A stretch of DNA of 64,000 nt from Psammoneis japonica (Eukaryota), in NCBI GenBank assembly GCA_008632985.1, contig QPGO01000072.1:1-64000 (forward strand). The letters are read 5' to 3'. The translations under genes and the position numbers were made by a program. Each line of letters begins with the position of its first letter. The first letter of the stretch is position 1. The notes beneath the pieces were generated by a model, which saw nothing but the letters and a program-made list of their open reading frames with translations, was not told the DNA's origin and made no database searches. Of the stretch, positions 2,941 through 56,855 are shown piece by piece.

Positions 2941-3216
2941 TGACAGAAATTGAAGGCAAATGGCAAGAATTCAAACAATGACTCCTCACTGCTGTCTAAA
3001 TGGCAGATGAGTCTCCGCTCAGAGACCGTCACAGGAGCCGAAAGACGTGTGAGTCGGTGCAATCGGGCTGCTGTTGTTATTCTTGTGAGCCTTGTGGCTC
3101 GAAAGCAAACTGCATCGCGCGCGAACGTGCGGAACTAAAGCACACAAAACTGTGCGCGGTAAACTAAACAGTGCACGACATTTCGCGTGCACCCAAATCC
3201 TGTTCAAATCCTGTCA
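2941..3216 (-). repeat. 3' LTR of the Copia element
   Basis: 276-bp direct repeat of 8057-8333 with TG...CA termini. Confidence 0.97.
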
Positions 3217-6200
3217 CTCCCCAGTTTGCTTGAGGAGTCACAGAAACAGATTCGACTTCGGATGGAATGAAGTTCCAGAACATGAGGGGGCGGAGAAGGT
3301 CCCCAGATTTGGGAGCAACCCCAATGCTTGCTGAGAATGTCAGCAGGGTTGCGGGAGCCTTCGATGAAGTGGAACTCTGGGCAACCAGACGCAATTGCCT
3401 CACGCACACGGTGGAACGACAGTGCGGTGTGTCGCTTGTGTAACTTGGAGTGCGGGATGGTGGCACTGTCTACAACCGACTTGTTGTCACCGAACATGCA
3501 ACTGACATTGTGGATCGGGACGCCAAGGCAGCGCAGGGTGATGCGCAGGTCAACAATCTGCTCGACACAAGTCCTTGCGGCAACAAATTCAGACCCGCAG
3601 GTCGCAGTCTCCACAGTGGCTTGCTTCTTAGAGAACCAATCAGCCGGGAATTTGTTGAGGAAGTGGAGCATTCCCATGACAGAGCATCCGGTGAGCATGC
3701 AATGGCACAAGTTTGCATCGACGTAGTGGGTGGCAGTGACGAACTTGCCAAGGGGTGGTGGAGCGTCCTTTGGGATCATCTCTTCTGCTTCGCTGTACAC
3801 GGAATGCATCCATTCACAGGCCGGAGCAGGGAGATCCAAACAGCCGGGCTCTTCCGTACGAACGCGGAGAGCGCCGTGTCACATCTTGGAGAGGCAACCA
3901 CAGACGCGTTTGGCACGGTCCAAGTGACCTTGACGGGGCGCAGCTCGGAAGCTAGAGAGTGACATGACGGCCGTGGTGATGTCAATTCGACCAAGGGACA
4001 CTGCCCACTGGAGTGAACCAACAAGAGACTGGAACTTGTGAATGCCATCGGGCCCCAGCAGTTTGGAAGTGTCCAGTTCGGGGTGGTCACCCTTCTCCAG
4101 AGGTGACAGGGCGTTGGTGGCAGGTTTCTCCCCAAACAGTCGGGTGCAGCTGTCAACCATGCGCTCGATGCACTTGCGCGGAGACAGGCACAAGGTTCCG
4201 TCGGGATCCCGGGAAAAGTCACAACCCAGATGGAACTCAATGGGTCCCGCACCCTTGAGCTTGAACTTGCACTTTTCCGTGAGAGCATCGACGAAAGATT
4301 GAGGGTCCTTCATGGCAATGGCGAGGTCATCCACACAAACGGCAATGTGTTCACAGTGGTCGCCGTTCCTGCGCATCCAAATGTCGGGTTCAGCGCGGCA
4401 GGGGAAGAATCCTTCAGCTCGCAGGCAGTCGGCGAAGCGCTCGTGCCAGCGGAGACCAGAGCTGCGCAGTCCATGCAGGGCCTTGTGGATGACAAGGATG
4501 TGTCCTTCGAGTTTGCCAAATTCGGGTCCGGCTGCAATGTAGAGCTTCTCCTTGGTGGTGGCTTCAAGGCAGGCATTGCCAATGTCGGTGGCCCATGTCT
4601 CTAACTCGTTGAGTTCGGCCAGGAAAATCATCAGCCGAAGGCCACGGAGGGAGACTGCTCCGGAGTGGACACTGTCGATGGGTGCGTCCGTGAGGTGCCC
4701 ATCGGCTACGAGTCGTGCCTTGTGGCGACCGTCGTGTTTCACGTCGTGCACCAGGTGCACTCGGATCTTCTTGTGTCCCGCAGGAGGAGTGGAAGACTCG
4801 AAGGGCCCGCAGTCATGGAAGACTTCGCACTCCTCGAGTTGGTCCATCTCGAGGTTAGTTGCGTCTCCCCATTTGCGGTTGCCGTTGCGTTCGTCTGGTG
4901 ACATGGCGTGTTTGCAGTTCCGGGGAACTTTGCATCCGCACTTGCAGCGAGGTGCAGTGCAGAAGGAGTGAAGCTTGGCTTGGTTGGCCATGCGAAACAG
5001 CTTCTTTTGGCGCCTCGCGATGGTGCGGAACCGCTTCCAGCCATCAGTGTCTAGGAGTCCGTTCTCTCGTGCACAGATGGCACAGGTGACGGGGTCATCC
5101 TTGGCGATGATGGCAAGAGGCTCGGACGTGATCTCCCCACTTTCCCATTCAAGCATGATGTTGTAGCTTGAGCCTTTCCAGGTTGGGTCATGAGGCTTCA
5201 GAGGTCCTTCGTGTGACACGATGCGTCGAAATTTCCAAACAGCAGTGTCTTCGTCTTCTTGCTCAATGTGATTCATGATGTCGTTGCAGGCAAGGACTTC
5301 CTCGTGTTCGTCGTTGTTGACAGAGCAGACGAACTTGGTGAGCTCGGGATTGCCGTTCACTTTCCATTCGTGGTCTTCGATGGCCTTGACGATGCGAGCT
5401 CTGTGGCGTTGTCCGTCCTCTTGTGGCTGCATGAGGAATGTGCGTCCAATGATGTCTTGCGGATCAAAAACTGGCATCTTGGGTGTCCTGATCTCCCCAT
5501 CAGGAGAATCGACGGGGTTGTCGTCATGGCGGGATTTGATGATGGGTTCAGGTGGCTCCCCATCAGGAGGATCAAGACGCAGGTTTTGAACGGCAGGATC
5601 GGTGGCAGCGGAGCGTACGTTGGACCGGCAGAGGATCTTCTGAGTCTCGTCAGAGAGAATCTTGAAGGTCATCTGGTGGCCGACGTGCTCAGCAATGCCA
5701 ACAAAGCGTCCGCACAACTCACGGGATTCGGACGGCCAATCGGAGTCATCGAGGTGGAAGCACACGGGTTCCCACCAGTGAAAGCGAAGCAATGGGCTGA
5801 TGTCCGGGGTGGAGCCAGTGAGAGTTTCGAGGGGCATGCGCCAGTGGAGACGTGGGGATGCTGCATGGTTGAGTGTGAAGCACACATGCATGAGCACCAG
5901 CAGCCATGTGTGGGCAGGCGAACCAAAACGATCCATGACAGTGTTCACCATGCGCTTCACGAATGTCGCTGTCAATGTCATAGAACACATCGTCGGACGG
6001 TTCCTCGGAGCAGACGTCGTGTGCGCACATGGCGCGTCGGGGAGCTCGAGGTGTCGTCTTGGGTTGAAACGCACTGTCGTTTTGAGCTGCCGCGGAGAGG
6101 AGCAAGCCACAGTGTTGATCGCATGTGAGGCTCTTGCCACTCTGCGCACGATGCTGATGAGCTTGGTTCTTGACAGCACGGAGTTCCTCGACAGGGTGCA

Positions 6201-7149
6201 CGGCATTCTCGAGCATGACGCGCTTCTGTCCTTCAGAGAAGTGGTCACTGGCCGGGATGAGTGCCTCGCACTTGCGCAACTGATCTTGCCAATGAAGGAT
6301 GAACCCGTGGGTCGGACCTTTCCAAGTGCCATCACCAAGACGTGCGGTGGTGAGGTGCGTGAGCAAGGTGGAGGACTCGATGGATGCGCGGGCAGAGGCG
6401 AGCGCACACTCAGACAAGGCGTGGCAGACGGTCTGGGAGTCAGAAGACCCCACATTTTCGCGAATGAGAGCCTTGCCCTTGTCGGTGAGAAGAATGCGTT
6501 CGAAGACGGCGAACATGCACTTTTGCTGTTCAGCAAAGAGCAGTTTGTCTTCGGGGCTGGTCGGTTTGTACGACGAGTCTAGAATGCACTTGATGTCTTG
6601 GGCACGGGCTTGTGCCACAAGTGAGGTGTGCCAAGTGTGCCACTGCTTGTCGGATTTGAGAGCCGTGAAAGCGGTGGGGTCACGCTTGATGCCTCGCTTG
6701 AAGTCTCGCACCGGGTTGCATGCCTTGGTCCGGTTGGTGACATGCGGAGGTGCGAGGGGTGAGCTGCTGACGGACACAGAAGACATGCAGTCGGGGCTGA
6801 GGCGGCAGGCAAGGAACTCGTCATGTGTGAACAACGAGGAGTCATTGGCAACGTCAAGACCTTTGTGTGCTTTGACAATGTGCAGACCAATTGGAGCTGC
6901 CAACATGTTCTTGTGACCGCGGGGCAAAGGGATCACATTGGTGCCGTTGTCGCACTCAAGCGAGTCGATTTGGGATGGCATGAACGTGAACAGTTCTTGA
7001 CACGAGTCCGTGCCGTCTTGGGTCAAAGCCAAACGAAGAGGGCTCCCAGCACCTTGGGCAAGCACGGTTCCAACAACGTGCTCGAAACCATCGGTTTGTT
7101 GCTGACGAGTGAGAACCATGGTGGACAAAAGTGGTGTCAGGACAAGCAA
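3204..7149 (-). pseudogene. Copia gag-pol remnant (gag ~7149-5962; integrase tail and RT ~5961-3882; RNase H ~3878-3300)
   Basis: Motifs VRDFKRGIKRD (gag); DVKHDGRHKARLVADGH, TDIGNA[C]L and AV[C]VDD (RT); YVDANL, GSEFVAAR, GDNKSVV and NPADILSKHW (RNase H). In-frame TGA at 3879-3881, probably from CGA. Protease and integrase core are missing. Confidence 0.93.
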
Positions 7150-8041
7150 TTCTTGTTGGGAAGCAAAGGTAGACTTGAAACTTGGGTGAGAACAGACTTG
7201 ACTTGAAATGGACTTGACTTGAAATCTTGAACTGCCTTGAAATCAGAAGTCGCCGGGCTGTGCCATCCCGTTCGTTGTCAAGTGCTAAACTTCCCATCCG
7301 GTCCGTAGAGTTGTGCCGGCACATCCGAACCTGCAGCCAGCGGCGCTTTGGGTTGCTTGTGAGCAGAGTGGTGGGTTGTAAACCCCTGCAGGTGAGCTGA
7401 CCAGAGGTGGACAAGACCCCCGAACCGTTCTTGTTTTACATCGGTTGGATTTCCCAATCAGGCTGGCCAGTTGACGCAGGCGTTGGGCGCTGTGGACGAA
7501 CGAACAAACTCGGGAAAACACCCTCGCCCCAACGCAGGCTGCAGTCATGGCTGCTTGCTCTCACAGTCGTCCTCGTGGACCCAGCAGAACTGCAGAGCAC
7601 CAGCAGTCCGGGGTGGATCAGGTGCAATGGACTCGGCGTGCTTGTAGAGTGGCAGCAAAGCCGCAGTCCAAAGGGTGGGTTCAATTCCTTGGCCGTGAAG
7701 ACATGCACATGCACATGTCTTCAGCGACGGAGATCCTTGAACATGTGGGGTTCTTGACCGTTAACCGTTGGGTGGGTGTGTCAAGGGATGAGGATCAAGG
7801 ACAGACTTGGGTGTGACCGTTGAATGCATGTCTTCAGCGATCAAAGGCAGCACAATCAATCCAGATGTCCAGCGGCAAGGAAACTTGACGGTGGCGTTAA
7901 CTTCCTGCCGATGCCCTGGCATTGAATGCGCGCAGACTTGCCGATGCACGCAGAACATGTGCGGAGGTCCACGCAGAATTGAGATGGCGTCGTCGGTGAA
8001 TCAACGACGACGATGGCGGTTGCTCAATGGGTTGACAATGA

Positions 8042-8056
8042 GCAAGACTGTTAATC
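8042..8056 (-). other. Putative primer-binding site complementary to a tRNA-Asn(GUU) anticodon arm
   Basis: Plus strand gcaagactGTTaatc abuts the 5' LTR and has the layout of an anticodon stem-loop (CAAGA-CT-GTT-AA-TC). Confidence 0.55.
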
Positions 8057-8333
8057 TGACAGAAAATTGAAGGCAAATGGCAAGAATTCAAACAACAACT
8101 CCTCACTGCTGTCTAAATGGCAGATGAGTCTCCGCTCAGAGACCGTTGCAGGAGCCGAAAGACGTGCAAGTCGGCACAATCGGGCTGCTGTCATTGTTCT
8201 TGTGAGCCTTGTGGCTCGAAAGCAAACTGCATCGCACGCGAACGCGCAGAACTGAAGCACACAAAACTGTGCGCGGCAAACTAAACAGCGCGCGACATTT
8301 CGCGCGCACCTAAATCCTGTTCAAATCCTGTCA
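8057..8333 (-). repeat. 5' LTR of the Copia element
   Basis: 277-bp direct repeat of 2941-3216. Confidence 0.97.
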
Positions 8334-9723
8334 GTTTGTGGGCGGACCACTCTGCGTTTTGGAGAAATGTTGAAACAAAATTGACACTGCAAAAAATCTC
8401 ATTTAAATGCCTCTGTAATTCCAGGACAAACAAGGAGATGACCCCCCTAAAAACTCAAAATTTCTCATGCCTCTTGTGTCCACGATTTAGCCGAGCCAGC
8501 TGCAGCGCTTGCTCTTGGTTTTCACGCTGGCATCAGAGTGCTTTTCATCATTTTGGTGCCATTGCTTCATCAAATTGGCTGCACCCAATGCACAGAGCAG
8601 ACTAAAAGAGATGTTGCAAGCAGCGAAAGACATTTGCACCAGCTTGCGATGTCGTGCCGGTGTTTGCATTTTTTCCACAGCAGGCATCATGGAGCACACG
8701 GAGCAAACCTCGGCGAGGAGTGTTTGATGCATGTGGGGCTGAGCACTTCAGCCCCTCATGCAAAGAAACAGAGAGATGACAGCAGCATGAGGAATGTCTT
8801 CAGCCAGCTGCTGGCTGAAGAATCCTGCACACTGCAAGGGTGCCGGTAGATAGAATCGAATCACCTCATGTCATGTTCAATGTCCGTCCGTCAATCAGTG
8901 CTGAAAGAGTCTGTCAATCAGTGCGTTTGGGAGGTTTTGGCCGCAAGCTGAAAGTGCCGTACACTAGAGTGACAGATTGCGCTGTTTGCTATTTGCTGTT
9001 GCGTTCGCCACGTCACGCGCGCGTCACGCCGATGACGTCAAAGGCAAACTGCGTGACGTAGGATAGTCAATTGCTTTCATAGATCCGGGTTACAGGCATC
9101 GCTGATCTAATCGAAATCGCGCAGCGCGCACATCTAGTGTTTATTGTTTTTCGTATTATTTCCGCGAGCATTGTATTGCTAATGAATAAAAATAATATTA
9201 TTTCCTATTTGACAGTAAATACAGTGTTTATTATTTTCATAAATAAAATCCGCGAGGCATGAAGACACGCCGGACATTTTCTTACGTATGTTGCTGACAT
9301 CAGCTTTGCTGTGTTAATTAAGCATTCGACGCCCAACGAGGCCATGTCAGGCAGTTCTGACGCACGCCTACCCAGAAAGACCTCTGTGACGTCATTGTGC
9401 TCAATGTTCGAATAAAAGTTACCCAAATGAAGTTGTCACCTTTCTTCGCCGACATTGTCTAAGCAACAAGTGATCGTCCGGCATGATAAATAATAAACAC
9501 TAGATCGGCGACCCCTGTATCAATTGCGTTCATCCCCGATTTGGCCCGATTTAGCAAACTGCTCCTCCCCGTAGAAGTGTGCGTATTTTTTGCACCAGTT
9601 TGCTGTTTGCTTCGCTGCACTTTGAGATTCCTTCGAGGTGCGCCATCGTCTCTCGTCTGAAAAACACCACACTCGCCTCTCGCCTGCCTGCAGCACAAGG
9701 ACATCAAAGTGCTTCTATCAACC

Positions 9724-10931
9724 ATGAGTGACGGCATGCGTTCGAATGCCAGTGCACCAGCTGCACAGCGTCATTTGGTCGATGGCGGTGTGCTGGCATC
9801 AATCGGGAATCAACCCGCCGCCCCCGCTCGGCCGAATGCCGCTGCTGCTCCTCGCAAAGCACAGCGATTCCCAAACACGGACAAGCTTGTCTCAGACGGC
9901 AGACATGAGGAGGTGAGTTTTCTGGCGTTGCTCTTCTCTGCTTTGCACATCATTTTTTCGGTTTCTTGCCACTTTGATCTCATCTTTTTTTCCCCCAACT
10001 TGTCTGCAGTTGCTTTCCGACATGCTTGCGATTGTCGAACAGTGCGATGCTTGCAGCGCTGTTGCACCCGATGCCAAGGATCCGCAGAATCCTTGGCACA
10101 AAGTGGGCCGTCTGTTGCATGCAGATGGCAATGGCATTGCAACGAAGCATGGGTTGCAGGCATCAAAAACTGCGAATCGCGTTGCTTTGACGAAACGCAA
10201 GTTCGTGATGGAGAAAGGCATTCTGCCGCGCCTCGCAAAGAAGCATGAGGACGAGTTTTCTCAGAAGAACTTCGGGGATGCAGACAACGAAAAAAGGGGA
10301 CATGTGCTTTGGGAGAAATGCCGAGACAGTGAAAAGAAATCCCAAGAAGGCAAGGATGAAGAACATGCCAGGAAAGTCCAACAAGAGCACACGGACGAAG
10401 CGAACGAGGAGCGTTGGAACCTCAACCCCCCCGGTGCTGTGAACTCGACTGGTTTGCAGTTCAGTGACCAAGTCATGCGCAACATCAATTTCACCGGCTC
10501 GGCTGCTTCTAAGTCGCCTGTTGTCAGAGATCCAGAGAGCGGCCCATTCGCTGCCACCAGCAACAAGAAGCACAAGAGTGACCCTGCTCCACCTTCTGTG
10601 GCCCGAGCATCTGCGCCTGGATCAGAAACGTCTCCATTGGATGTTGATGGGGAGCAAACAAAAAGCTTCAAAGATCAGGTGCAAGAAGAACCACGGGGCA
10701 TTGACGAATGTGCATGACAACTCTGCCTGCATCAACGACTCGTTTGAGAGGACTGTGGAACTCCTTGCCTCCCAGAACAATGCCATGGAGGAGTCTGTGA
10801 AACACAAGCGCAGCGCCACAATGCTTTCCTCCCTTCGCGAGGCTCGCAAAGATGCTCTGGACCGTGGAGATGATGTTGACTGTGAGAGGCATGACCGGGA
10901 AAATCAAGGAACTGGAGAACACATGGTGTGA
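9724..10931 (+). pseudogene. Harbinger accessory (putative DNA-binding) protein, degenerate
   Basis: ATG at 9724; intron 9913-10009 (GTGAGT...TGCAG) joins in frame to ORF 9974..10717; frame break near 10715. Convergent with the transposase inside the TIRs. Function is inferred from position only. Confidence 0.6.
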
Positions 10932-11153
10932 CATGGGCGGCAACTAGGTGGAGCATGATTCGGGGGCAGCAATGAGACTCCAGAGTGGCAGCCACAAAGC
11001 ACTGTGCAGGTGCACATCTACAAACCTGCCTGCAGTGCATGTGTGCACAGGTGTCAATTCCAGACAGTGTGGTCAGGCTCGATGCATTCACACGACACAT
11101 CATGTCAGATCTGTCATGTCAAAACTAAAGTGGAATCTATTTTGTTCTAAAAA

Positions 11154-12752
11154 TCACAAAATTTGTCCAGCTGGCAAGCAGTCTTCTAGCTCTGGGGCAT
11201 GCAAGCCAAGTCCATTTCCTGTTTGGGATCCATTCACGCACGTGTGGACATTGTGGAGAAGAAGACCTGCACGCAGCTGCGCAAGGACAAAATCGTGGTC
11301 TTGTTCGAGCTTGAATTGTTCCTTGCGATTCACCAAGGCGCAGATGTTGACCTCACCCGCGCATCCCCACTCCACAGATTGACGGCATTGCTTCATCACC
11401 CCATTTTCTTGAACTTGACAAAGAGGAAGAACAGGAACTAATCTCGTGGGCTCGTGTCCAGTGCAAATGCAGTGCCAGACACCTTTGAAGGCTGAGTCTC
11501 CGTAAAAAGCACACACCTTTCCTTGAAGTTCCGGGCACGCCTCTTGAACAACACAAAGGAAAGTGTCAATTTCACTCCTTGTGAGCGCTCCACTGTCGTG
11601 ACTGGAGAAACACGGAATGGCAAGAACATTTTAGACATGTGATGCGACGCAGCAGAACAATGTTGGAACTCGGATGCACTCACGGTTTGGATGACATGGG
11701 CCCACAAGCGTGCGCATGAACTCCATTTGGAAGGAACAAATTGAACATCTTGAGAGCATGCTTTTTAGACTTCCCAGTGTGCACACAACGTTGAGCCTCA
11801 TCATGTCCCGGGCGATGCATGCTTCCCTCGTAGTCTCCATCAGGGCCCGTTCGTGGTGTTGCAACTGCACAGTCTTTGCAATCGGCAGAGCCGCATGCCA
11901 CAAAAGAGCCGGGTGCAAAGTGAACTCCAGGACAAAAATGTTCCTCTTCCGTCTCGGGGTCAATCAACGTGACATCTCTTCCAACTTCCTGACAAATCGC
12001 CTCCACAAAATCTGGAAAGTGTGGCATCCACAGTCGCAGACCGTGTGGTCCAAGCAGACATCCATGTCTCGAATCAAAATGCCGCACGAAATGCTTGAAA
12101 CCATGTGACCATTTCATCGCTTCCCCAGAGATGCCATTGTTGGCTAACTCTTTGTGTGTCTCCCCTCGCTTGTGCTTGATTGGTGAACAGATCAGCAAGT
12201 TCTCGCGATGAAAATGCAAGTGGCCTTGGTTCCCAGGACGGGGCACACGAACAATGACTGGAAGATCCAGCAGATCCAACATTTCTTGGAGCTCAACCTT
12301 GGAAAACGTGGTAAAATCATTTGCCTCACTGTCATCTTGGAAGCTGTCAATTCTTGTGAATCGACAGATTTCCTTGTACGGAGTGGTTTCGAGTTCATGG
12401 TCTTGCAGGTCTCCGACCTCTGCATCAACCTGCACCGCGTTGTGGAAATGCAGCATGCACGTTCGACATGAGCCTGTGCACAATTGCAGGCAAACGTCTG
12501 CTTGAGCAATTTGGGGAGACATTTCCATGTCATTTTTGGATAAGGAGCTGCGACCTTTGTGCAACCAACATGATCGTGGAGTTTAGATGCTCTTGCGCGT
12601 TCTCCAGAGCACACATGGCCGCCGACATTGCTTCTCGACAAAGAAGTTGATCGTCGACATTAACTCCAAATGTCTTTCTCCTTTTCTGTGTTGTCCATCG
12701 TGTGGGCTTGCGACGTCTCTTACCCGTAAAGGGATTGATAAGCATCGCCATT
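11154..12752 (-). pseudogene. Harbinger-type DDE transposase (DDE_Tnp_4-like), hypermutated
   Basis: Motifs ADCK, AQRCVHTGKSKKHALK..FLPNG...CGP, FYGDSAF, RQSVEWG and LLHNVHTCVNGSQ. Intron 11602-11683 joins ORFs 11680..12564 and 11154..11516 in frame. N-terminal frame break near 12540. Confidence 0.85.
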
Positions 12753-13111
12753 GCGGCTCGACGAGACTGGAACAAGAAACAGAATGAGATGCGAGAAATG
12801 GCGCGCCACATTCATGTCGAAAAGAAGGAATCTAAAAACGAGCGTCTGATTAAAATGACTAAAGTTTGATCGAACGAAAGGAACAGGTCGCGAATTGAGA
12901 AATCGCAAAAAACAAAATTCCATTTTGTGACGTCGGCGCTTCAACTAGGGCTAAAAAAATCGAAGCCAACAGTGAATAGCAAATAGCAAACAGGCGCAAT
13001 CTGCAATCTGTCACTCTACTGTGTATCATGGTACAACAACAAACTGAAGAGAAAAAAGACGACCGTTTGGGCTTACCATGTAGTGAGAGTAATACCGTAG
13101 AACAGTAAGGT

Positions 13112-35730: not shown

Positions 35731-38700
35731 TTTTGGAACAGAAAGAGCACGCGCGCCTGGACGAGAGCAAGAAAGTGATAACGGTTGATGGCGAATCCAG
35801 TCCGGAATCCGCGACCAAGGAAGCTGAAGAGACAGATCAGGGAGGAAACGGCACTAAAGATGATGAGTCACGAACGGAGCCACAGTTGGGAACGAGAAGG
35901 AGAACGAGAATGAGAACATTCTTGACATTGGGCTTTGGTGAGGGAAAGAGTGAAAGAGTTGTGCGAGGAGATCAGCTCCTCGTTGTCTGAGACAGACCCA
36001 GCCATTGACTGAGCACTCGTCAGAGTGCACTGGATCTTTTCAAAGGGGTCTTGTGATTTCACAAATCCAAGCCCTGGAAGCAGAGGCAGTTGTTCCAACA
36101 CATGGTTGTTTCAGAAATGCCACAACCATGGGAGAGAAAACAGTGGTGGTTGGGCAGACCCACCCAACAACCCACCTGCAAGGATGGCACCAAAGCCGGG
36201 TGACGGGTGAAATGGTCAGCAGCTGGACCAAGCCATTCAAGAACAAGAGTGGATTCAAGAAAGGGCCACAAAAGAACCAGACTGCGTTTAAAGGATGTGT
36301 GAAGGAACTGTGTGACTTTGCACATGACAAGACAGGCAGCACACAGCACAGCAACAAGATCCTGAGGCCGCTGCAAAAATGACACAAGAAGATTGTGTGC
36401 GCCACATGGGCCAGCTTTTTGACCCAGGCAACTGTGTGAAAGTGACAACAGAGCAGCTGGAAGAGCTGACCTCAGCAGCAAAAGGACGCTCCACCAACCA
36501 AAGACTCAAGTGGAAATGTGTTAATCAAACACCAGCCAGGCCTGGGGGCAGAAGAAGAGATCAACGACCACATGAGCTGGGTGCTGTGGTTGCTTGAAGC
36601 ACTGCAGAAAACAAGTCAAATGCTCCACACAGGATGTCAAGCAGGTGCAATTTGCCAGAACAATCCTGAAAACAGCTTGCAGGTCAAGCAAAAGGCAATT
36701 CATGGTGCAATCTGCAACAAAGATGGGCCAGCAGCAAGAACTGCCTGATCATGGTGCAGGATGTGGCAGTGGCCAAGGATGTCTTCAGTCAAGACATGGG
36801 ATCCATCAAGGGCAAGACAGTGAACAAACAGTCTCCCTGAGTCAAGGCATTGACAGCTGACATGCCTGCCCCAGTTGCAGTGCAATGTTGTTGATCCATC
36901 ATGCTCTCCTGTCCTCCAACATGATGAAGATCAATGGGCTGCCAACTGCTGCTGAGACATTGGCATTGTGCCATTTGGCACAATCAAGTGCACATTCAAC
37001 CAGAAGATCAAAACACTGCTTCAAAGCACCAGTCAAACACAGAAGGCCTGCAAGACACATGGATTTGTTGCAACTGCACAGTGCATGTTAACAGCCAACT
37101 TGAGCAGATGCCCGAACAGCTGAGATGGGACACAACCTCAATGCCATTTCACTGGAAGAGCCTGCGGCAGAAATTGAGAGACATGCTTGTCCTGTCAAGA
37201 ACTGCATGTGCTTGCAATGCCCCATGCTGCAATTTTGAAACTTTCCATGCTGGCTGACCACCGAGGTGGCAAACTGGGCCATGTTTTGGCCAAACTGCTT
37301 CACGGCCAAAGAGGTGGCATCTCTGAGTGGTGACATCCACACACCCTTGCAACCAGCCTCCAAATTGTGCACAACAAACATTGCCCTCTTGAGTTTGGAG
37401 AACATGCAGCACAGACCCACAAAGCACACGACAATGCCACAGTGAGCCACACCATCAGTGCCACCGCCCTGCATGGCCAACTGGAAATGCCCAGGGGGAC
37501 ACTTCTCATGAGCCTTGAGACAGGGTGCTGCATCAACCACAATCACAATGCATGGACTGTGCTCCCAATGCCCAACACCATGATTAACCAGGTGCGTGGC
37601 ATTTTGCAAAATGTGACAAGGCCTCCAAAGGCATTGGTTTGTCCATGGTTGGAGCAGGAATCCTGTTGCCAACAAAATTTCTGAAAGCTCTCAAAAAGAT
37701 GAAATGGCTGACATTGATGACAGGAATGACAGCAGCTGTGAGCCTGACAACAGCTCCCTGTTTGAGTTTGTGGGTCAGACATTGATGATGCCACCCCACC
37801 ACTGAACAACTTCAACACAATGCCAAGACCCTGGATGAACCAGCACAACAAATGCATCACAAAATGGTCTTCATGCAGGGGCAAATGCTGGACCGAACAA
37901 AGATCCTCAAACTGCAGGAGTGGACAGGGAACCACTGGAAACCAAGGAGAGGACCAAGACACTGCCAAAGCTGCCAAAGCTGCAGAAGTGGAGCAGGAGC
38001 CAACCAACAATCATGGTCAAAGAACAATGGACAATGCCAGGGACCAAGCAACAGCTGATGCCAGTGCCAATGCTGAGCCAGACAACCAAGCAAGATCTCA
38101 AACCAAAAAGGAACATGCACAAGAAATGCAGTGAATTGACTGGAGTGTGTGACCTGCACCAACAAAAGCCCAGGTCACATGACCACCTGCACCTTGCCAT
38201 GCTCAATGATGTTGACTGCACCCAATGCCCCATGAAAAAAGGGCACAAAAAAAAACTGGCACAAAGGGTGAACAGGCAGTGATGGAAGAAGTGGAGGAAC
38301 AGCTTTTGAAGTGATGGAGATCCTCAAGCCAATCAGCATCAACATGCCAACTGGGCACAACAACAAAAGAAGAAAGCACTGCAATGCTCATGTTCCTCAA
38401 ACAAAAACAATGTGACCATGTCTCAAGGGATGTGGTGCAATGATGGTTGACCTCAGAAGATCCGCGCAGCAAAAGAGGACATGTCATTGCCTGCTGCATG
38501 CATGGAATCCATTCTGCTGTCATGTGTCATCATCACAAAGAAAGGACAAGCAAGATGTTGCAAGCACAAACCTTTCTCATTTCTCAATGCAAACAGATGA
38601 GAAATGTGCAAAGTGCATGGCACATGAGACAAGTGGCAAAACAATGCCACATGTCAAACTGCTGAAGGTGCTCTGTGGAATGGCTGTGGTGCACTGCTGG

Positions 38701-40122
38701 TGTGTGGAAGGAGGAGCTGGCGGGGATCTCAAAAGTTGGGGAGTCAAAGTGAGCCCATGCAACATGTGCATGGCAAACAAGACCATCAATGGAGAGTGAG
38801 CAACACACCATCTTTTGGCACATGGGCCCATGGATGACTTGAAAACATTGCATGTGAAATGCAAGGTGGTTGCTTGATCAAATCATCAAGAAGTGACCAG
38901 AGAAGGTGCGCGCAAAACATTTTGGGTCAATGATTGCTTGGGGGACCTTCACAAGCACCTTGGGATGACTGTCAACTGCAGCTTTAAAGGGAAGGTCAAG
39001 CAGAGCATGTTTCACCAGCACATTGACAAGCTTGCTGACTTGCTGCCAAAGGACATGGACAGGAAAAGCCCAGCTCCAGTGGCAGCCAAGCTGCCTCCTG
39101 TTTGACACAAATGAGAAGGATCTGGGATGTCAAACACAAGAGGAACAAAAAATCTTCCATTCTGTGGTGACAAAGTCACTTTTCTTGTTGCTTCAAATGA
39201 CAAGGCTGGACATGCAGATGGTGGCATCCTTCCTGTGTGCCCAGGCTCAGGACACTGGGGCTGATGACAAAACATCATGATCTGCGATTGACCAAGGGCC
39301 TGCCACTCACACTGATTGCAGATGAGCTGGACATGACAACCAAGCATGTGCTGGTGGATTGGCACTTTTTGCACAGCCCACCCCAGCATGCAACACATTT
39401 AGCTTGACCAAGAGTGAGCTTGTTGTGTTGGGGTCCATGATGGCGCACGTCAAGAACTCTGCCATCATGGAGAGAAGGAATTTTGTGGAGGGTCAGGTGT
39501 TCAAAAGCTGGGAGAACAAGCTCTGCCAGCAGGACAATCAGTGCCATTCTGTTGGAGAAGAATGATCAGATGCTCAGCAGCACAAAAGGATCAAACACAT
39601 CAGAGTGCAGCATTTTTTCTTGACCGACCACATCAGATGCTCAGCAGCACAAAAGGATCAAACACATCAGAGTCGTGCAGCATTTTTCTTGACTGACCAT
39701 GCTCTGAAGGGTGGCGACCTGACCGCTGGACATTGTCCAACCGAGATTGGCTTGCAGGCTACTTCACAAAGGCACTTCAAGGACTCCTGTTCATCAAGTT
39801 TTAAAACCAAATCATGAATGTGGCGGGAAACACCCCAATTGATGACCTCAGCCATTGCAGGAGAGTGTGTTGGAGCAGAAGAGTGTGCACCTGGAGAGCA
39901 AGAAAGTGATGGGTCCACAACTGAGGAAGCTGAAGAGACAGATCAGGGAGGAAATGACAATGAAGATGACATGATGAATGGAACTGCAACTGGAAATGAG
40001 AAGAAGGAGATGAAAGTGAGAATGTTCTTGCATGTTGGCAAGGGGAAAGAGTTGAGTGACATTGGCTCATTCCAAGATGATTGTTGGTTCTAACAGCCAT
40101 CAGAACCCGCTGGATCTTTTCA
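35731..40122 (+). mobile_element. Old, heavily degenerate Ty1/Copia (CoDi-like) LTR retrotransposon
   Basis: Diverged LTRs ~35731-36042 and 39868-40122, both ending TGGATCTTTTCA. PPT-like GCAGGAGAG before the 3' LTR. Remnants of integrase (AEIERH; KHCPLEFGEH...WTVLPMP), RT (VKLLKVLCG, PCNMCMANKTING, MDDLK, KHLGMT) and RNase H (KHIRVQHFFLTD, HCPTE). No TSD found. Confidence 0.88.
39564..39700 (+). repeat. ~67-bp tandem duplication inside the RNase H remnant
   Basis: atcagatgctcagcagcacaaaaggatcaaacacatcagagt...gcagcatttttt occurs twice in succession. Confidence 0.85.
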
Positions 40123-43637: not shown

Positions 43638-45042
43638 GAAGCTAGAATACCCCCCAAGTGTTGCGCGGAATATTGTGGAACATTTTTTTCGTGTTGTAGA
43701 CCATGCTGCATAATAGTAGGCCTCTGTAGTAAAGAATGCAACTGGGTGTTAATCTATAAAACTAAGAAGAGGACAGGTTACAGGAAGAATAATCTAGATC
43801 TGTTTTCTCTGTTTGTTGTGGCTGTTGGAGTTGCATAGATATCCTTAGGTGTAACTTTGCATATTGCTATTCATGCGTTTTCAACTACAGCTTTCTGCCC
43901 CGAGTGCTAGCTGCTGACGGTAGGCGTCATTAATCATCACTGATACCCAGTCCTCGCCGGCAGCACCCCCCAGAGCGCGGGATCACAACGAGTCTTCCGG
44001 TGGCGTATAAAACGTGAACGGTGTGGTTCTATCTTGGACTAAGAAACAGCAAGTCTCCAGAGAACAATGTGGCTGCATGAATTCAGTCGCATCATAGGAC
44101 TATCTGTTGACACCAATGGCTTTGTGCGTTGGTCGTAGGTTGGAGTAAGCATGCAAGAAAAAGGAATCTGCTTTCATGATTCATGATTGCGTTGACTCGT
44201 CTTGCCTCGTGGTTTGAGTTTCATCCCCACCAGCCTTCCTAGAGTGGTGTCCTGGGTCCCACATGGTCATTTGGGCGGAGAGGAACCATTTCGAGTCGTA
44301 TTTTGTTCAGTATAAGGCTGGTCCTTATCCCTTATCCAGGACCCAAAAACGAAACTCGATCATGCTTTCTCCGACCCTCGCACTTTGATCAGTTCTCCAT
44401 GACTCAAACTGATTCTTCAATCATGTGGTTGGCTTTCCGTTGGAGGTGCGGGACCGATCAACATTATGTGTTTCCAACTCCACGGTTGTGTGCAAGCCAA
44501 TATGGTATTTACCGGTAAGTCGTGAGGGGGTTCCAACTCCCTTTCTTTTGCTCAAAAGTCAAAAATGCTGATCGATCTCAGCCAATTTGCGGAATTAATT
44601 CCGCCCAAAATTTCAAAATTATATGTGTCACAGTATGACCAGATACTTTTTTAAATGATCATTGCAAAATTATTCGTTTCATAATACACAATGAATATCT
44701 AAGGGCTCATATAAATCTCTATACACCCGACTAAAAATCTTTTGAAATCTTATCAACGTTAATCCTAAACGGTGAAAACATGCGTTGGGTTAACTCGTAC
44801 TTGGCTGACCTGCTCTTAATATTTTTATTAAAGGGTTGAGGTCTGAAAATGATAGGCGCCACCAAGAAACGAACATCTATAGGAGTCGCACAATTACTTA
44901 ACGATCCATGATTCAATTCAAACGACCAAAAAACCAACCAGGTTTGCCCGGAGATGATGGATGCGCTCATTTTCTTTGCACACACAACGCGACAAAAGAG
45001 GTGCAGAGCATCACATACATCATCAAAAGCCCCATCACCACC

Positions 45043-48000
45043 ATGACAGCATGGAAGCTTGCATTGTCCGTCGGCCTTGGCCTGACAATGCTTCTTACAG
45101 TCCATAAGGGACTTGTCCGTATGGAGGCAAACAGTCTCACATCCATGGGAAACGCGACAGTCACTTCGACTTCTTCGCTTCGCAGCAGTCCTGCTTTTTC
45201 GAAACGAAAAGCGACGACTGACGAAGAATCTCAAGTACAACCGCAAGTTCTACGAAACGCTCTCGAGGTTGAATCACCCACGATTGCTCCCTCCAGACTA
45301 GTTCCCGACTGTGATACGCCGAGACCTAAAGTAATCTCATACTTCTTCCCTACCTCGTATCCCACGGTTGGCGATGCGGAAGATGATACAGAGCAACCGA
45401 CCTCATTACCGACAGTGGCCACAAACAGTCCTACGCTTGCTCCTACACCGGCTCCGTCGATGACGCCAGCCACCGATAGCCCTACACCGGCTCCTACCCC
45501 GAGTCCGACTCCAGCGCCAACTCCATCACCAACACCAGCTCCTACCCCGAGTCCAACGCCAGAACCAACGCCGTCACTTACATCTGCTCCGACTCCAGCG
45601 CTGACACCATCACCGACGCCTACTCCTACCCCGAGTCCGACTCAAGCGCCTACACCTGCGCCAACACCGTCACCGAGTCCGTCTCCGACCACTAGTCCAA
45701 CAACAGTACAGACGCCTGTTCCAACACCTGCTCCGACTCCAGCACTGACACCATCACCAACGCCTAATCCTACCCCTAGCCCGACTCCAGCGCCTACAAT
45801 GGCACCAACACCGTCACCGACACCAGGACCGACGCCGTCACTTACATCTGCTCCGACTCCAGCGCTGACACCATCACCGACGCCTACTCCTACCCCGAGT
45901 CCGACTCAAGCGCCTACACCTGCGCCAACACCGTCACCTACTCCAGCACCGAGTCCGTCTCCGACCCCGAGCCCAACACCTGCGACAACTCCGAGTCCAA
46001 CACCTTTACCTACAATGATCCCGACGACTCCCCCCTCAAACGCAGCAGACCCAGCTCCACCGAAATTGACCGACACTCCTTCTGTCTCCTCCTCTGGATC
46101 GCCCGCTCCTAGTGATTGTGGCACTCCTACAGAAATGACAGGCTCGCCAACTACTGCTCCTACTCTTGCAGCAGATTTGGCACCAAAAGTCACCGACGCG
46201 CCTACGAGTAGCCCGACAATGGCGGCATCGACCGTTGAACCTACTCGATCACCAACTGCTATGCCAGTTTCCAATAGTCCAACATCAAATCCCACTGATG
46301 TACCGGACCAGACAGAGTCTCCCACAAGTGAGGCAACTCCGTCGCCATCGGTTTCCGAAAGCTCTCTTCCGTCGGCAGCGCCCTCGTTTCATCCTGATCC
46401 CGATCCAATTGATACCCCCGCTCCATCCGTCGCCCCTGGAACGGCAGCTCCGAGCGATTGTGGTACTATGACGGGCTCGCCAACTACTGCTCCTACCCTT
46501 GCAGCAGATTTAGCCCCGCCAACCGACACTGTGGCGCCCACAAATGAGCCATCTTCATCTCCATCAGTTTCCGAATCTTCTCTTCCATCGGCAGCGCCCT
46601 CATTTCACCCTGATCCGATCGATACGCCCGCTCCTTCAGTCTCAGTAGGAACGCCGGCTCCCAGTGGGGATTGTGGCACTCCTACAGCAATGACAGGCTC
46701 GCCAACTACTGCTCCTACCCTTGCAGCAGATTTGGCCCCGCCCCAAGACACTGACGCACCCACAAATGAGCCATCTTCATCTCCATCAGTTTCCAAAACT
46801 TCTTTTCCATCGGCAGCGCCCTCGCTTCACTCTGGTCCCGATCCGATTGATACGCCCGCTCCATCCGTTGCCCCCGGAACAGCATCTCCGAGCGATTGTG
46901 GTACTATGACGGGCTCGCCAACTACTGCTCCTACCCTTGCAGCAGATTTAGCCCCGCCAACCGACACTGTAGCGCCCACAAATGAGCCATCTTTATCTCC
47001 ATCAGTTTCCAAATCTTCTCTTCCATCGGCAGCGCCCTCGATTCACCATAATCCCGATCCGATTGATACGCCGGCTCCTTCAGTCTCAGCAGGTACGCCT
47101 GCTCCTAGTGGAGATTGTGGCACTCCTACAGCAATGACAGGCTCGCCAACTACTGCTCCTACCCTTGCAGCAGATTTGGCCCCGCCCCAAGAAACGGAAA
47201 GGCCCACAAATGAGCCATCTTTATCTCCATCAGTTTCCGAAACGTCTCTTCCATCGGCAGCGCCCTCTGTTCACCCTGGTCCCGATCCGATTGATACGCC
47301 CGCTCCTTCAGTCTCAGCAGGAACACCGGCTCCTAGTGGAGATTGTGGCACTCCTACAGCAATGACTGGTTCTCCAACCACTGCTCCTACACTTGCAGCA
47401 GATTTAGCCCCGCCCAAAGACACTGAAGCGCCCACAAATGAGCCATCTTCATCGCCATCAGCTTCCGAATCTTCTCTTCCATCGGCAGCGCCCTCTCTTC
47501 ACTCTGGTCCCGATCCAATTGATACGCCGGCTCCTAGTGGAGATTGTGGCACTCCTACAGCAATGACTGGTTCTCCAACCACTGCTCCTACACTTGCAGC
47601 AGATTTAGCCCCGCCCAAAGACACTGAAGCACCCACAAATGAGCCATCTTCATCGCCATCAGCTTCCGAATCTTCTCTTCCATCGGCAGCGCCCTCTCTT
47701 CACTCTGGTCCCGATCCAATTGATACGCCGGCTCCTAGTGGGGATTGTGGCTCTCCTACAGCAATGACAGGCTCGCCAACTACTGCTCCTACCCTTGCAG
47801 CAGATTTATCCCCGCCCAAAGACACGGAAGCGCCCACAAATGAGCCATCTTCATCGCCATCAGCTTCCGAATCTTCTCTTCCATCGGCAGCGCCCTCGCT
47901 TCACTCTGGTCCTGATCCAATTGATACGCCGGCTCCTAGTGGGGATTGTGGCACTCCTACAGCAATGACAGGCTCGCCAACTACTGCTCCTACCCTTGCA

Positions 48001-51000
48001 GCAGATTTGGCCCCGCCCAACGACACTGAAGCACCCACAAATGAGCCATCTTCATCCCCATCAGCTTCCGAAACGTCACTTCTGACAGCTGCCCCCTCAA
48101 ATACTGCAGACCCAACTCCTCCCAATCTAACGGACGCTCCTTCGGTGTCTTCTGGAACATCAGCTCCTAGTCCGAGCCCTACCCTATTTGCTGGTCCGGA
48201 TCCAATCGATACGCCTTCTCCATCAATCGAGCCCATTACATCAAGCCCTTCGATTGATCCTCGACCAGATCCTGGCACGAATGAGCCAACTATGGCACCT
48301 TCGTCGGGCACTCCAGATAGTACAGAAACACCGGACTGCGGACATCACGTGCCGTCTGCTGAGCCCATCAATGTCCCATCGATATCCCCGACTAGTTATG
48401 CAGACAAGTTGCCGCCATCACCTAACTCGTGCTCCATTGATGTAAGTTTTTTCAACGCACAAACATTGGGAAGTACGTTATCTTTGATTTCATTGTTTCT
48501 CATGCCCTAGTATTCTTTCACATAATCCTTCTTATAGGTTCAGATTGGCTGTGTATCATGTGGAAGCGACGACGTCGCCAGAGGAACTAACTGCTCTGAT
48601 ATCCCACCTGTTGATCCTGTTTGTGGGAAAGACAACAAGAATCTTTCATCACTGTCCTTCAAATACAACCATCGGGTATGTAACGAGAGCGACAATGGCC
48701 AACAAGGCGACGCCTCATACACTTGCATGGATGACAGTGACGCTTGCGCTTTGGCCGGCGAAAGCCTCATTTCATGTAATGGCAGTGGTGGATTTATGTA
48801 TGAAGAGTTTGTTAAGGAAGGCGAGATCTTGGAAATCGAAGGAAATGTAGGAACTCTCCCCGATAACATTACATGCATTGTGAAGTCGACGGACGGTGCA
48901 TCAGTCTGTCAGGAGGTGAAATTCAGGCCGTCTGATATCAGCCTTCGACATGAGTATGGCAGTTTCACTCTACAAAGCTGTACAGATGAGGAAGGAAAAG
49001 AACACAGCTGCTTCATGAGCATTCGTTATAGCTATATTGTGGAGAACGATGGCAGAACCAGCATGGAGGTTGCCTTTCTCGAACGTACCCACAATGGCGA
49101 ATCGTTTGTTTTAACAGAGCTACTGGATACCACGTTCCTTGAGCCAGGAGAGAAGGGCGTTGCCAAAGAAGTCATCAAAATGGACAGATGCGAAGCCTCG
49201 TGCTTTGAAACCTTAGCTCAGGTAGAAGCTTATCCCCCACAAGGCACGAGTCCTTGCAGAGACACCGATTCGCACGGGTTTTGCGTGGGCGATACCTCCG
49301 CACCAACGTCTCCTCCTTCTCCCAGCCCAACCTCGAGTCCAACCCCAGCAGATGAGCTTGACGGAACCACGAGCCCAACATTGCCTCCTACTCCCAGTCC
49401 TACTCTTGATCTCAGCACCCCGAGTCCAACCCCAGCAGATGATGCCGATGGAACCACGAGCCCAACATTGCCGTCACCTACGTCTCCTCTCACTCCCAGT
49501 CCAACTCCTAATCTCGGCACCCCGAGTCCAACCCCAGTAGATGGGCCTGATTCAACTACGAGCCCAACATTACCGCTGCCCACGTCTCCTCTTACTCCCA
49601 GTCCAACTTCTGACCTCGAAACACCAAGTCCAACCCCAGTAGACGAGCCTGATGGAACCTTGAGCCCAACGTTGCCGCCACCAACGCCCCCCCCTACTTC
49701 TGATTTGCCGGACCCGACTCCTAAGCCTAGCGCCCCAGTCGAATGCGATGTTGATGTGAGTGCGTGGTGTGTTTACCATTGAAAAAGAAACGTTTTTATT
49801 GACCTAGTTTTCTGCCTATGATACACTCTTTGTTTTGTTCAGGTTGATTTGGATTGTGTCTCGGTAAACGATGGAACTCCCTGTCATGAAATCGAGCAGC
49901 CTTTAGATCAAGGCGACGAAGACGGTGACGTCACAGAGCTGGTGTTCAGGCTGGATGGGCGTCTATGCCTTGTCAGTGTCAACTCTCAAGGACCTGATGC
50001 CACTTGCACAGAAGATATCAGAGGATTACCTAGCGAAGATGGCGATGTTCTGTGTACTGGCACTAGCGGAGAGACTCTTTTCAACGGAACCCTTTCACAA
50101 GGTGATTTTTTCCTTGTGAAGCAAGAAGACGGCAGTGCCCTCCCTGAACGAGTCACGTGTGCGCTAACGAGCACAAATAATTTAACTACGCAGCAGGTCT
50201 CACTCAAAACTACAGGAAGCTTGGTTGTCGAGGACCAGTTTGGTAGTATTACTTTGGTGGGCTACAAACACGATAAGAAAACGCCCGTGTGTATTCACGA
50301 AGTCATGTACACCATGACCATCGGTAACAATGGCACAATCGATGTGTCCGTGGAGGTTACCGAGATTGACAAGGATGGAAACCTGACAGACGTTATTGAT
50401 CGTGTTCCATACACTTACTTATCACCTGGAGAGTCTACGAGTGTAACTGAAACGCGCCACATTGATTTCTGTGTTTCAGCGTCTTACAAGATTATTGCTC
50501 GTGTCGAAGCTGAGTCTAACGGTGGTGACATATGCGAAGCTACCTACGAGTACGAGTTTGAGACAGGAACTGAAAACTTGCCAGACCCTGCACCACCTGA
50601 ACAAATGACACCGGCGCCAACGGCAGCTGCAACACAAAGCCCAACAGCTTTTCCAACTGTTGCTTTACCACCGCCTAAACTTACGACATTGGCGCCAACG
50701 GCAGCTGCAACAAAGAGCCCAACAGCTTCTCCAACGGTTGCTCTGCCACCGCCTAAACAAATGACATCGGCGCCAACGGCAGCTGCGACAAAGAGCCCAA
50801 CAGCTTCTCCAACGGTTGCTCTACCAGATGCTGCTATATCATCGGCTTCTGGATCTACTGTGTCATCGGCTTCAGGATCTACTGTGTCATCGGTTTCTGG
50901 ATCTGGTTCGTCCGCATCCAATCAGATACCAAAGTTGACTCGCCAAGGAAAGGGGAAAGGTGGGAAGGGTGGTCAAGGTGATTCATTAAAAGCTGCAAAT

Positions 51001-55909: not shown

Positions 55910-56605
55910 CTACTCTTCATCCAACATGGCATAACGAATTTCTTCCAAGACCTCATTAATCGCATCCACGCATTCCGATTGTTGCTTTTGTAGCGACTGC
56001 ACACTCTGTTCCAACAGTCTCATGGAACTTTCTTGTTGCGGTTCCAACAATCCCTCGCGACGCAAAATTTCTAAATGCAACGCTGCCGTCACGTTGAGTT
56101 TCGTTTCCTCGTATCGTTGCAACGACTGCAACAAGTGCTTTTCGTTGTTTCCCCGAAATAATTCCATGACGGACTTTATGAGACTGGATTGGGTCGCAAA
56201 GGACGCCGTGGCGGCCGCCACGTGAGAAGGATACGGAACCAAAGACCGTGTTTCGAGTACTTGTTGAAAGCCTTGTTCAAATTGACGATAGGTTGCAACC
56301 CGGTCTTGTTGAGTCGTCAAGACGACTTGGAGCAATTCACGTCGACTCATCTTTTTCAATTCATTCTGTATTTTGGAATTGTCTTTTTTCTTCACGTCCG
56401 TTTCCGCCTCTTCTTTGTTGTTGTTGTTGCTTGCCAACAAATCGATTGTTTGACCCATGTCCTTTGCATGATTGCCGTGACAAGCGCACGCTGATTTTTG
56501 ATGCTCCTTGTCTTGCATTCGTGTATTCAAAATGTCGAGGGCATCTTGAATGTCAATGCCTGACTGGCTCTTGGTGGATTGTGTTGCTGGCGTTGGTTCC
56601 GTCAT
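55910..56605 (-). CDS. REX1-B-like domain protein
   Basis: QQDRVATYRQFEQGF...Y...TASF...LQRYEETKLNVTAALH...INEVLEEIRY resembles the REX1-B family pattern (recognised from memory, not searched). Confidence 0.65.
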   Translation of the reverse strand: MTEPTPATQSTKSQSGIDIQDALDILNTRMQDKEHQKSACACHGNHAKDMGQTIDLLASNNNNKEEAETDVKKKDNSKIQNELKKMSRRELLQVVLTTQQDRVATYRQFEQGFQQVLETRSLVPYPSHVAAATASFATQSSLIKSVMELFRGNNEKHLLQSLQRYEETKLNVTAALHLEILRREGLLEPQQESSMRLLEQSVQSLQKQQSECVDAINEVLEEIRYAMLDEE

Positions 56606-56855
56606 GGTGGATGCTTGTTGGAGGGAGTTTTGAGCAAATCGAAAAGTCGAACGGCTTCGTTTCTACGTGGGGAAGGACAGACCGTTCTATGCTTTCGCGC
56701 GATATAGCGCGCGCTTGAAAACTGACTCACAAACTCCGCTCTCACAACGATGGTGCAGCAACCGACGACAGGGACATCACAATGACAATTCGAAAGACGC
56801 GTTTTAACTGCCATACAACGTGAACACCATCCGTATCAACAGTATTTCTAGACTT

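Follow-up and report, generated by a model that had tools for sequence, protein, structure and literature searches.

To our knowledge, all well-characterised natural DNA hypermutation systems (AID/APOBEC and fungal repeat-induced point mutation, RIP) deaminate cytosine. A process acting at TpA dinucleotides was recently reported for mutation-accumulation lines of the chlorarachniophyte Bigelowiella natans; according to the accessible part of this preprint (Mettrop et al., bioRxiv 10.64898/2026.01.13.699255, 2026), 231 of 302 nuclear mutations fell within two integrated viral regions, and 230 of these 231 consisted of A to G or T to C changes, each of them at TpA, with a rate of ~6e-7 per site per generation. 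The same portion of the text states that hypermutation occurred in only 11 of the 15 lines, that its main target is single-copy and transcriptionally silent, and that DDE endonuclease and reverse transcriptase domains are over-represented among TpA-poor coding sequences of that genome; its authors propose a DNA adenine deaminase, with an ADAT2 homologue as a candidate (10.64898/2026.01.13.699255). Here we analyze one 64-kb window (positions 1 to 64,000 of contig QPGO01000072.1) from the genome of the diatom Psammoneis japonica, in which a 4062-bp putative PIF/Harbinger-type DNA transposon (8962-13023), the adjoining copia-type long terminal repeat (LTR) retrotransposon (2941-8333) and two further blocks are nearly devoid of TpA. 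The signature probably reflects a targeted conversion of TpA to TpG or CpA at the DNA level in silenced mobile DNA, accompanied by ordinary CpG decay in the same domain.

As far as the accessible text of the preprint goes, the two cases agree in that only TpA is hit and becomes TpG or CpA, with a gain of both products, and in that foreign or mobile DNA is hit rather than host genes; the single-copy main target in B. natans is also in line with the absence of a copy-number effect in the window. All four depleted blocks of the window (TpA rho 0.03-0.11; TpG/CpA 1.5-2.1), which consist of mobile or repeat DNA, lie beyond the cut-offs given in the preprint, 0.43 and 1.52 (10.64898/2026.01.13.699255). 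The cases differ in host and target, namely a rhizarian with integrated DNA of nucleocytoplasmic large DNA viruses (NCLDV) and virophages there and a stramenopile diatom with LTR and cut-and-paste transposons here, as well as in degree, with a rho of 0.45 in the NCLDV region there and near saturation here. Furthermore, de novo mutations were recorded in B. natans whereas the evidence presented here is comparative, and CpG decay accompanies the loss of TpA here. In its accessible portion, the preprint names no diatom or stramenopile (10.64898/2026.01.13.699255), and the open-access literature searched yielded no account of diatom transposons losing TpA, so that this is the first diatom case of the B. 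natans type of TpA hypermutation that we have found. Accordingly, the host range of the signature would be widened across the SAR group, with transposons, and not viral inserts alone, as targets.

The transposon is bounded by imperfect terminal inverted repeats (TIRs) and contains two convergent genes. TIRs were delineated from inverted-repeat pairs, reading of the sequence and end alignment, and the core from TpA positions and composition; introns of both genes were predicted from the sequence by the fit of GT..AG boundaries and an open reading. The features of the element are as follows:

8962-9007: left TIR, beginning CAC, with TA at 8960-8961 as its flank
9044-9519: nested high-copy segment in the left subterminal region, with its own inverted arms (9127-9152 and 9485-9510), 35 TpA, rho 0.87
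9585-12540: TpA-depleted core comprising both genes, introns and spacer, with CpG at 0.69-0.77 compared to 1.17-1.75 at the element ends
9724-10947, plus strand: gene 1, an accessory open reading frame (ORF), with exons 9724-9912, 10010-10678 and 10749-10947 and introns 9913-10009 and 10679-10748, both GT..AG
11154-12751, minus strand: transposase gene, with a GT..AG intron at 11602-11683, the stop codon TGA at 11154-11156 and a frameshift at ~12531
12961-13023: right TIR, finishing GTG, with TA at 13024-13025 as its flank

TpA abundance was measured as rho, with two stretches of the window outside the depleted DNA as background. In the 3136 nt from 9585 to 12720, only 19 TpA are present (rho 0.10, compared to 0.56 and 0.58 in the background), about six-fold fewer than the ~108 expected at background rho (Poisson P = 5e-26). 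In the same stretch, rho is 1.55 for TpG, 1.48 for CpA and 0.73 for CpG, while ApT (0.91) is practically at the background level (0.91-0.92) and ApA/TpT (1.20-1.23) slightly above it (1.12-1.16). Gene 1 contains no TpA in exon 1, none in its 97-nt intron and two in the remainder; the transposase span (11154-12760) contains 15, nine of them in 11154-12540 (rho 0.10) and six in the first 220 nt of the coding sequence (rho 0.45). The three introns carry 0, 0 and 1 TpA, and rho in the intergenic spacer is 0.29. Given that introns and spacer are depleted along with the exons, selection on the protein does not account for the loss. Thus, the scarcity of TpA over both convergent genes, which a reading of the sequence alone had pointed out for 9600-12720, is confirmed and extends to non-coding DNA, although that span represents only the inner part of a transposon that extends from 8962 to 13023.

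The direction of the change was derived from the encoded protein. The transposase reading of 508 residues contains 3 Tyr, 30 His and 27 Cys, compared with a Tyr content of 2.6-6.9% in 47 homologous transposases (all those of at least 400 aa among 150 listed relatives). At the ten alignment columns in which Tyr is the consensus, i.e., is present in at least 50% of the 47 homologues, the window copy has His in four, Cys in three, and Tyr, Leu and Phe in one each (binomial P = 2e-5 for at least seven His or Cys), and the codons at the replaced positions are CAY for His and TGY for Cys. Other conserved residues were largely retained, with all 9 consensus Asp columns unchanged, as are 16 of 21 for Gly and 15 of 23 for Leu, and the (I/V)EW motif still has its Glu; the catalytic triad presumably belongs to these conserved acidic columns. 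All three surviving Tyr are located at columns in which Tyr is the most common residue of the homologues. The sequence-only reading had described a loss of Tyr in four motifs, with alignment to intact homologues set beforehand as the check. The claim holds for three of the motifs, QRCV[H]TG, VEWG[C] and LED[C]L, where Tyr is found in 33, 34 and 38 of the 47 homologues, respectively; at the HA[C]GP site, Phe (23 of 47) prevails over Tyr (12 of 47), so that this position appears to be aromatic rather than specifically Tyr.

These replacements show that TA was converted to CA or TG. Both products are seen on the coding strand, T to C (His) four times and A to G (Cys) three times, which does not fit editing of RNA on one strand. 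A transcription-coupled, strand-asymmetric process was also considered and is not supported, in view of the similar numbers of His and Cys, the nearly equal counts of TG and CA in the transposase gene (146 and 154) and the sparing of the first 220 nt of the coding sequence. Not all of the additional Cys and His derive from Tyr: in the columns of five window Cys and three window His, Arg is the most common residue of the homologues, and some of the excess is therefore attributable to CpG decay.

An independent view of timing is provided by the copia-type element that adjoins the transposon (RVT_2 match, E = 6e-23), which consists of the following parts:

2941-3216: left LTR, paired with the right LTR by self-BLAST at 92.4% identity over 277 nt
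3217-8056, minus strand: internal part encoding the RVT_2 reverse transcriptase, TpA rho 0.11
8057-8333: right LTR, the other member of the same self-BLAST pair

The two LTRs of one insertion are identical at the time of insertion, so that differences between them record what happened afterwards. Across 275 aligned columns, there are 20 differences, all of which are transitions within pyrimidine-purine (YpR) dinucleotides, with no transversions; 20 of the 142 YpR columns differ, compared to none of the other 133 (Fisher P = 1e-6). By site, five oppose TG to CA, four oppose TA to TG or CA, and six oppose CG to TG or CA, whereas 16 CpG and two TpA sites are unchanged in both. Among the 11 sites that have TA in at least one LTR or oppose TG to CA, nine have changed in at least one LTR, and the TG/CA pairs are best read as two independent hits on a single ancestral TpA. 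Given that the pair diverged after insertion and only at YpR, the process acts after integration, on the retroelement too. The six CpG-type changes in the LTRs, together with the eight Arg columns of the transposase, show that ordinary CpG decay is a second process in action. The polyprotein bears the same mark: in the 899-aa copia ORF, Tyr makes up 0.2% of the residues, His 4.6% and Cys 4.1%. The polymerase motif is CVDD in place of YVDD, which we take to be the expected form for the copia family, and a search of PDB sequences with this polyprotein yielded no matches.

Other copies of the transposon were examined among the contigs of one public sequencing run (two further runs share its sample), no RNA run being listed among those that contain the element; 156 contigs aligned to the window, 44 of them with at least 99% identity. 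At the 40 displayed of the 443 places at which copies vary, adjacent double differences of CA versus TG or TG versus CA were found at 11459/60, 11462/63, 12384/85 and 8997/98. As in the LTRs, TG opposite CA at the same site implies that each copy was hit independently, on either strand.

The ORFs of the two remaining depleted blocks of the window match no Pfam family:

1655-2940: TpA-free block with a single TpA, CpG-poor, located left of the copia LTR, with no Pfam family in 4 ORFs
35856-40090: TpA-free block with 8 TpA (rho 0.03) and a CpG rho of 0.14, with no Pfam family in 25 ORFs

Both are probably older, more decayed elements; their CpG rho is 0.14-0.18 and their TpG reaches 2.4, and weak terminal direct repeats with 75% identity are present at 35818-35924 and 39924-40030. 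Within the window, the depletion is restricted to mobile DNA and affects both classes of transposons, LTR and cut-and-paste. Among host ORFs of at least 250 aa, twenty have a TpA rho of 0.42-0.68, and two repeat-rich, host-like ORFs are lower (55913-56662, rho 0.23; 59436-60263, rho 0.33). The Tyr content of the host ORFs is 1.4-4.6%, except for the repeat ORFs 44902-48507 (0.3%) and 59436-60263 (0%).

Taken together, these data are best explained by a scenario in which the diatom host would apply DNA-level mutation to silenced mobile DNA. Under this scenario, the palindromic TpA would become TpG or CpA through A:T to G:C transitions on either strand, after integration, in both classes of transposons and nearly to saturation. 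In coding sequences, TAY codons (Tyr) would turn into CAY (His) or TGY (Cys) and the stop codons TAA and TAG would be erased with none created, so that reading frames would stay open while the proteins are damaged; CpG decay, which gives the same TG and CA products, would proceed alongside in the same domain. The simplest chemistry would be deamination of adenine to hypoxanthine in the 5'-TA context, with an enzyme directed to its targets by the state of the chromatin or by small RNA and not by copy number. The process would thus be enzymatic and targeted and would presumably serve as a defence; our confidence in any particular enzyme is much lower than in the process itself. A more far-reaching version, which we regard as tentative and rather doubtful, is that diatoms possess a chromatin-guided DNA editor of adenine (or thymine) at TpA that is shared with Bigelowiella and is old in SAR or in a wider group, that transposons have answered with TpA-free, Tyr-poor genes, and that the boundary of the depleted core marks the edge of the guide domain.

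Several known processes have to be compared with this scenario. RIP of ascomycete fungi is similar in that mobile DNA in the genome is crippled by transitions in one dinucleotide context, both copies are hit independently and a dinucleotide skew results. According to the available portions of two sources, RIP consists of C to T changes, mainly at CpA, which create TpA (PMC2621366; 10.64898/2026.01.13.699255). The skew observed here is the reverse (TpA 0.10, TpG 1.55, CpA 1.48), the opposite of a RIP composition, and RIP was rejected as the process for this reason. Furthermore, RIP is triggered by duplication, whereas here rho is 0.87 in the high-copy segment 9044-9519 and 0.66 in the tandem repeats at 45400-48100, both of which were spared, although these are few cases. 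Taken together with the element ends (0.41-0.58), they indicate that copy number alone is probably not the trigger. Hence, of the proposal in the sequence-only reading of a chromatin- or repeat-directed DNA process, the DNA level is upheld and direction by chromatin fits better, whereas direction by repeats is at odds with the spared repeats and ends. Diatoms also have a relative of the fungal RIP enzyme RID, the cytosine methyltransferase DNMT4, which is described in the accessible part of one article as having no known function (PMC9998398); an enzyme acting on cytosine would leave a loss of TpA unexplained. In animals, APOBEC3 (C to U) and ADAR (A to I) likewise direct deaminase-type editing against mobile or viral nucleic acids. 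Their substrates, however, are RNA or single-stranded cDNA, and their changes enter the genome only by way of reverse transcription, whereas both strands of a DNA transposon and of already integrated LTRs are affected here.

The same distinction bears on the possibility that A to I editing of RNA by an ADAR- or ADAT-like enzyme was fixed in DNA by reverse transcription. The TA context does fit the 5' U preference of ADAR, as noted in the accessible text of the preprint (10.64898/2026.01.13.699255), and retroelements could make up two of the four depleted blocks. Nevertheless, the transposon is not a retrocopy: it retains its TIRs, three introns and a DDE_Tnp_4-type transposase, so that editing of a retro-intermediate cannot account for its loss of TpA. 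Given also that the divergence of the copia LTRs postdates integration and that T to C and A to G changes both occur on the coding strand (four His, three Cys), this explanation appears exceedingly improbable, and its exclusion, initially argued from the DNA transposon, is borne out and now extends to the retroelement. An artefact of sequencing or assembly, in which dense modification of TpA in silenced DNA causes A to be miscalled as G or T as C, would have to be considered because the assembly has small errors (the base at 10897 is missing from both covering run contigs) and because the one run that holds the element may be the source data of the window itself. Given that contigs of the public run match the core with no other letters over 455-520 nt, that 44 of 156 contigs are at least 99% alike, and that the changes form a consistent pattern in the protein and include fixed differences between LTRs, we find it very improbable.

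Two further explanations have to be weighed. One is passive, context-dependent decay, in which methylation or a heterochromatic state makes TpA more mutable, owing for example to modified T or A or to poor repair, with no dedicated mutator and no defence involved. The losses of TpA and CpG share a domain, as shown by the CpG values of the core (0.69-0.77) and the ends (1.17-1.75), which points to a domain of chromatin or methylation, and the two blocks that look oldest lack both dinucleotides. The LTR pair is difficult to reconcile with slow decay: changes at none of 133 non-YpR columns but at nine of 11 TA-type sites imply that this young insertion mutated at a rate far in excess of background. 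In B. natans, the signature comes in bursts, in 11 of 15 lines, and looks regulated, as far as the preprint is accessible (10.64898/2026.01.13.699255). On balance, passive decay appears unlikely. The other is selected avoidance, whereby a living transposon lineage purged TpA and Tyr codons so as to escape a TA-reading nuclease, TA-targeting insertions or a mutator, and its proteins still work. The retention of all nine Asp columns and of most other conserved residues, the location of the three remaining Tyr where Tyr is most common, and the existence of another copy that is in frame where the window copy is shifted are all in agreement with such purging. It is nevertheless quite improbable, considering that introns and spacer are as depleted as exons, that nine of ten consensus Tyr were lost, the most conserved motifs included, that the element ends retain TpA, and that TG opposite CA at the same site, in the LTRs and between copies, indicates independent hits and no inherited design.

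Several observations weigh against a targeted, DNA-level process that converts TpA in silenced mobile DNA. The precedent consists of one preprint on one chlorarachniophyte, as far as its accessible text goes, and specificity for mobile DNA rests on the four blocks of the window. The ends of the transposon are not depleted: rho is 0.50 at 8961-9043, 0.58 at 9520-9584, 0.45 at 12541-12760 and 0.41 at 12761-13022, so that the sparing extends over 150 nt at the left end and ~480 nt at the right end, where it takes in the first 220 nt of coding sequence of the transposase; CpG is high in these ends. If the whole repeat were the target, the ends and the segment 9044-9519 should have been hit too. 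The boundary of the core possibly coincides with the edge of a chromatin or small-RNA domain; alternatively, the ends were possibly restored by later conversion with the many short derivatives of the family. The TG/CA pairs of the LTRs could descend from CpG, which is unlikely given that 16 CpG sites are unchanged and six changed once. Finally, the copies of the transposon differ by 12-14%, with 97 places of transversion, so that most of their divergence stems from another process, and TpA may have been lost mostly before or mostly after the copies separated.

If the proposed scenario is correct, a host A:T to G:C process at one dinucleotide would constitute a natural counterpart of the adenine base editors used in the laboratory and would add a new branch to genome defence. 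The combination of the LTR pair with a DNA transposon provides a clean argument for action on integrated DNA. There is also a practical consequence for annotation of diatom genomes: given that TAA and TAG are removed and no stop codon is created, damaged elements retain long open frames, and such dead elements, having lost their Pfam matches, resemble intact genes and mislead annotation.

The assignment of the element to PIF/Harbinger, which is made through transitive homology of the transposase, is probable, with the TA-only flanks and the domainless gene 1 as reservations. In favor of it are the homology to DDE_Tnp_4-bearing transposases, the TIRs, whose arms (8962-9007 and 12961-13023) are 81-95% complementary, and a second gene convergent with the transposase. 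PIF/Harbinger elements duplicate a 3-bp target site, TWA, and their second ORF encodes a Myb/SANT-like DNA-binding domain. Here, TA alone is found on each side, with GTA as the left and TAT as the right flanking triplet, no Pfam match was found in the window's exons, and gene 1 has no detectable Myb-like domain. A joint of 8929 to 13079 was considered as an empty site, and was discarded as unusable for the target-site duplication on account of 157 other letters between its sides. Accordingly, of the TIRs, target-site duplication and splice sites that had been described as intact, the TIRs exist, beyond the span originally marked, and three GT..AG introns fit, whereas a 3-bp duplication was not found. 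The copy itself is not intact either, with one-base shifts in both genes. The shift in the transposase at ~12531 is copy-specific: one contig lacks the base at a depth of 73, out of a total depth of 107 at this place, where depth is a sum over contigs and not a copy number, and the rest keep it; the window copy is broken there and other copies are in frame.

The spliced reading of the transposase aligns across the conserved block GPxSARRxD of the homologues. A comparison of the window's transposase exons with Pfam gave no match at E <= 0.1, and a word-indexed homologue search with the transposase exon found nothing, in contrast to an exhaustive search with the 300-aa exon, which recovered 212 relatives at E <= 1e-3 (best E = 4.6e-48, 39% identity). 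When 14 of the relatives were scanned with PF13359 (DDE_Tnp_4), nine scored above the curated cut-off, four below it and one had no match. In metagenomes, a scan with the window's own transposase protein gave 41 pattern matches, none of which was confirmed, and a search with an alignment of 6 sequences identified 8 related transposase loci, in which TpA rho is 0.38-0.60. Judging from these loci and from the normal Tyr content of the homologues, low TpA is not a trait of the transposase family. In four of the metagenomic loci (L003, L004, L007 and L008), the TpA rho of the transposase is lowish, 0.38-0.40, with TpG/CpA at 1.45-1.67; three of the flanks are at 0.55-0.65, and the flank of L003 is itself low (0.27). 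This pattern could be a mild form of the TpA process in other diatoms or ordinary coding bias.

The gene 1 model is open for 346 codons, which include no Tyr. Its last 16 codons are out of frame owing to one extra base near 10897; this base is absent from both covering run contigs and, being located in an A run, may be an assembly error. Comparison of the pieces of gene 1 with Pfam detected no family, with a C2c1 match at chance level only (E = 0.039); the word-indexed homologue search found no relatives, and none are encoded at the 8 related metagenomic transposase loci. The only lead comes from the Atlas, where GCR1_C clusters were matched weakly, with a score of 0.85 that falls short of the 0.9 level.

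The nested segment 9044-9519, which is TA-rich and CpG-rich, is absent from other copies, as indicated by a joint of 9043 to 9520 in 2 contigs. Its summed word depth of 528-778 is the highest in the element, compared with 31-35 for window-identical contigs. One possibility is a miniature element that inserted into the transposon after the hypermutation; another is a nested miniature element that escapes it. To the left of the transposon, as far as the copia LTR, the sequence 8334-8960 is also TpA-poor (rho 0.17) and includes a repeat at 8700-8853 with a summed depth of ~2040 and several alternative joints in the run contigs. The neighbor context of 62 surviving TpA shows no ATAT and no ATAC/GTAT, with CTAA/TTAG and TTAA 3.7-fold over-represented; given the small numbers and the assumed ancestral composition, preferential survival of TTAA and CTAA/TTAG is a lead only.

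Among the host genes, the two low-TpA ORFs 55913-56662 and 59436-60263 are Gln-rich or repeat-containing. The ORF at 44902-48507 (1202 aa, TpA rho 0.63) includes tandem repeats of ~200 bp with 78-85% identity across 46321-48171, shows a strong negative GC skew and is very low in Tyr, His and Trp. The best named relatives of a host GPI-mannosyltransferase ORF in the window, at 37-38% identity, come from Bacillariaceae, Cylindrotheca, Pseudo-nitzschia and Fragilaria.

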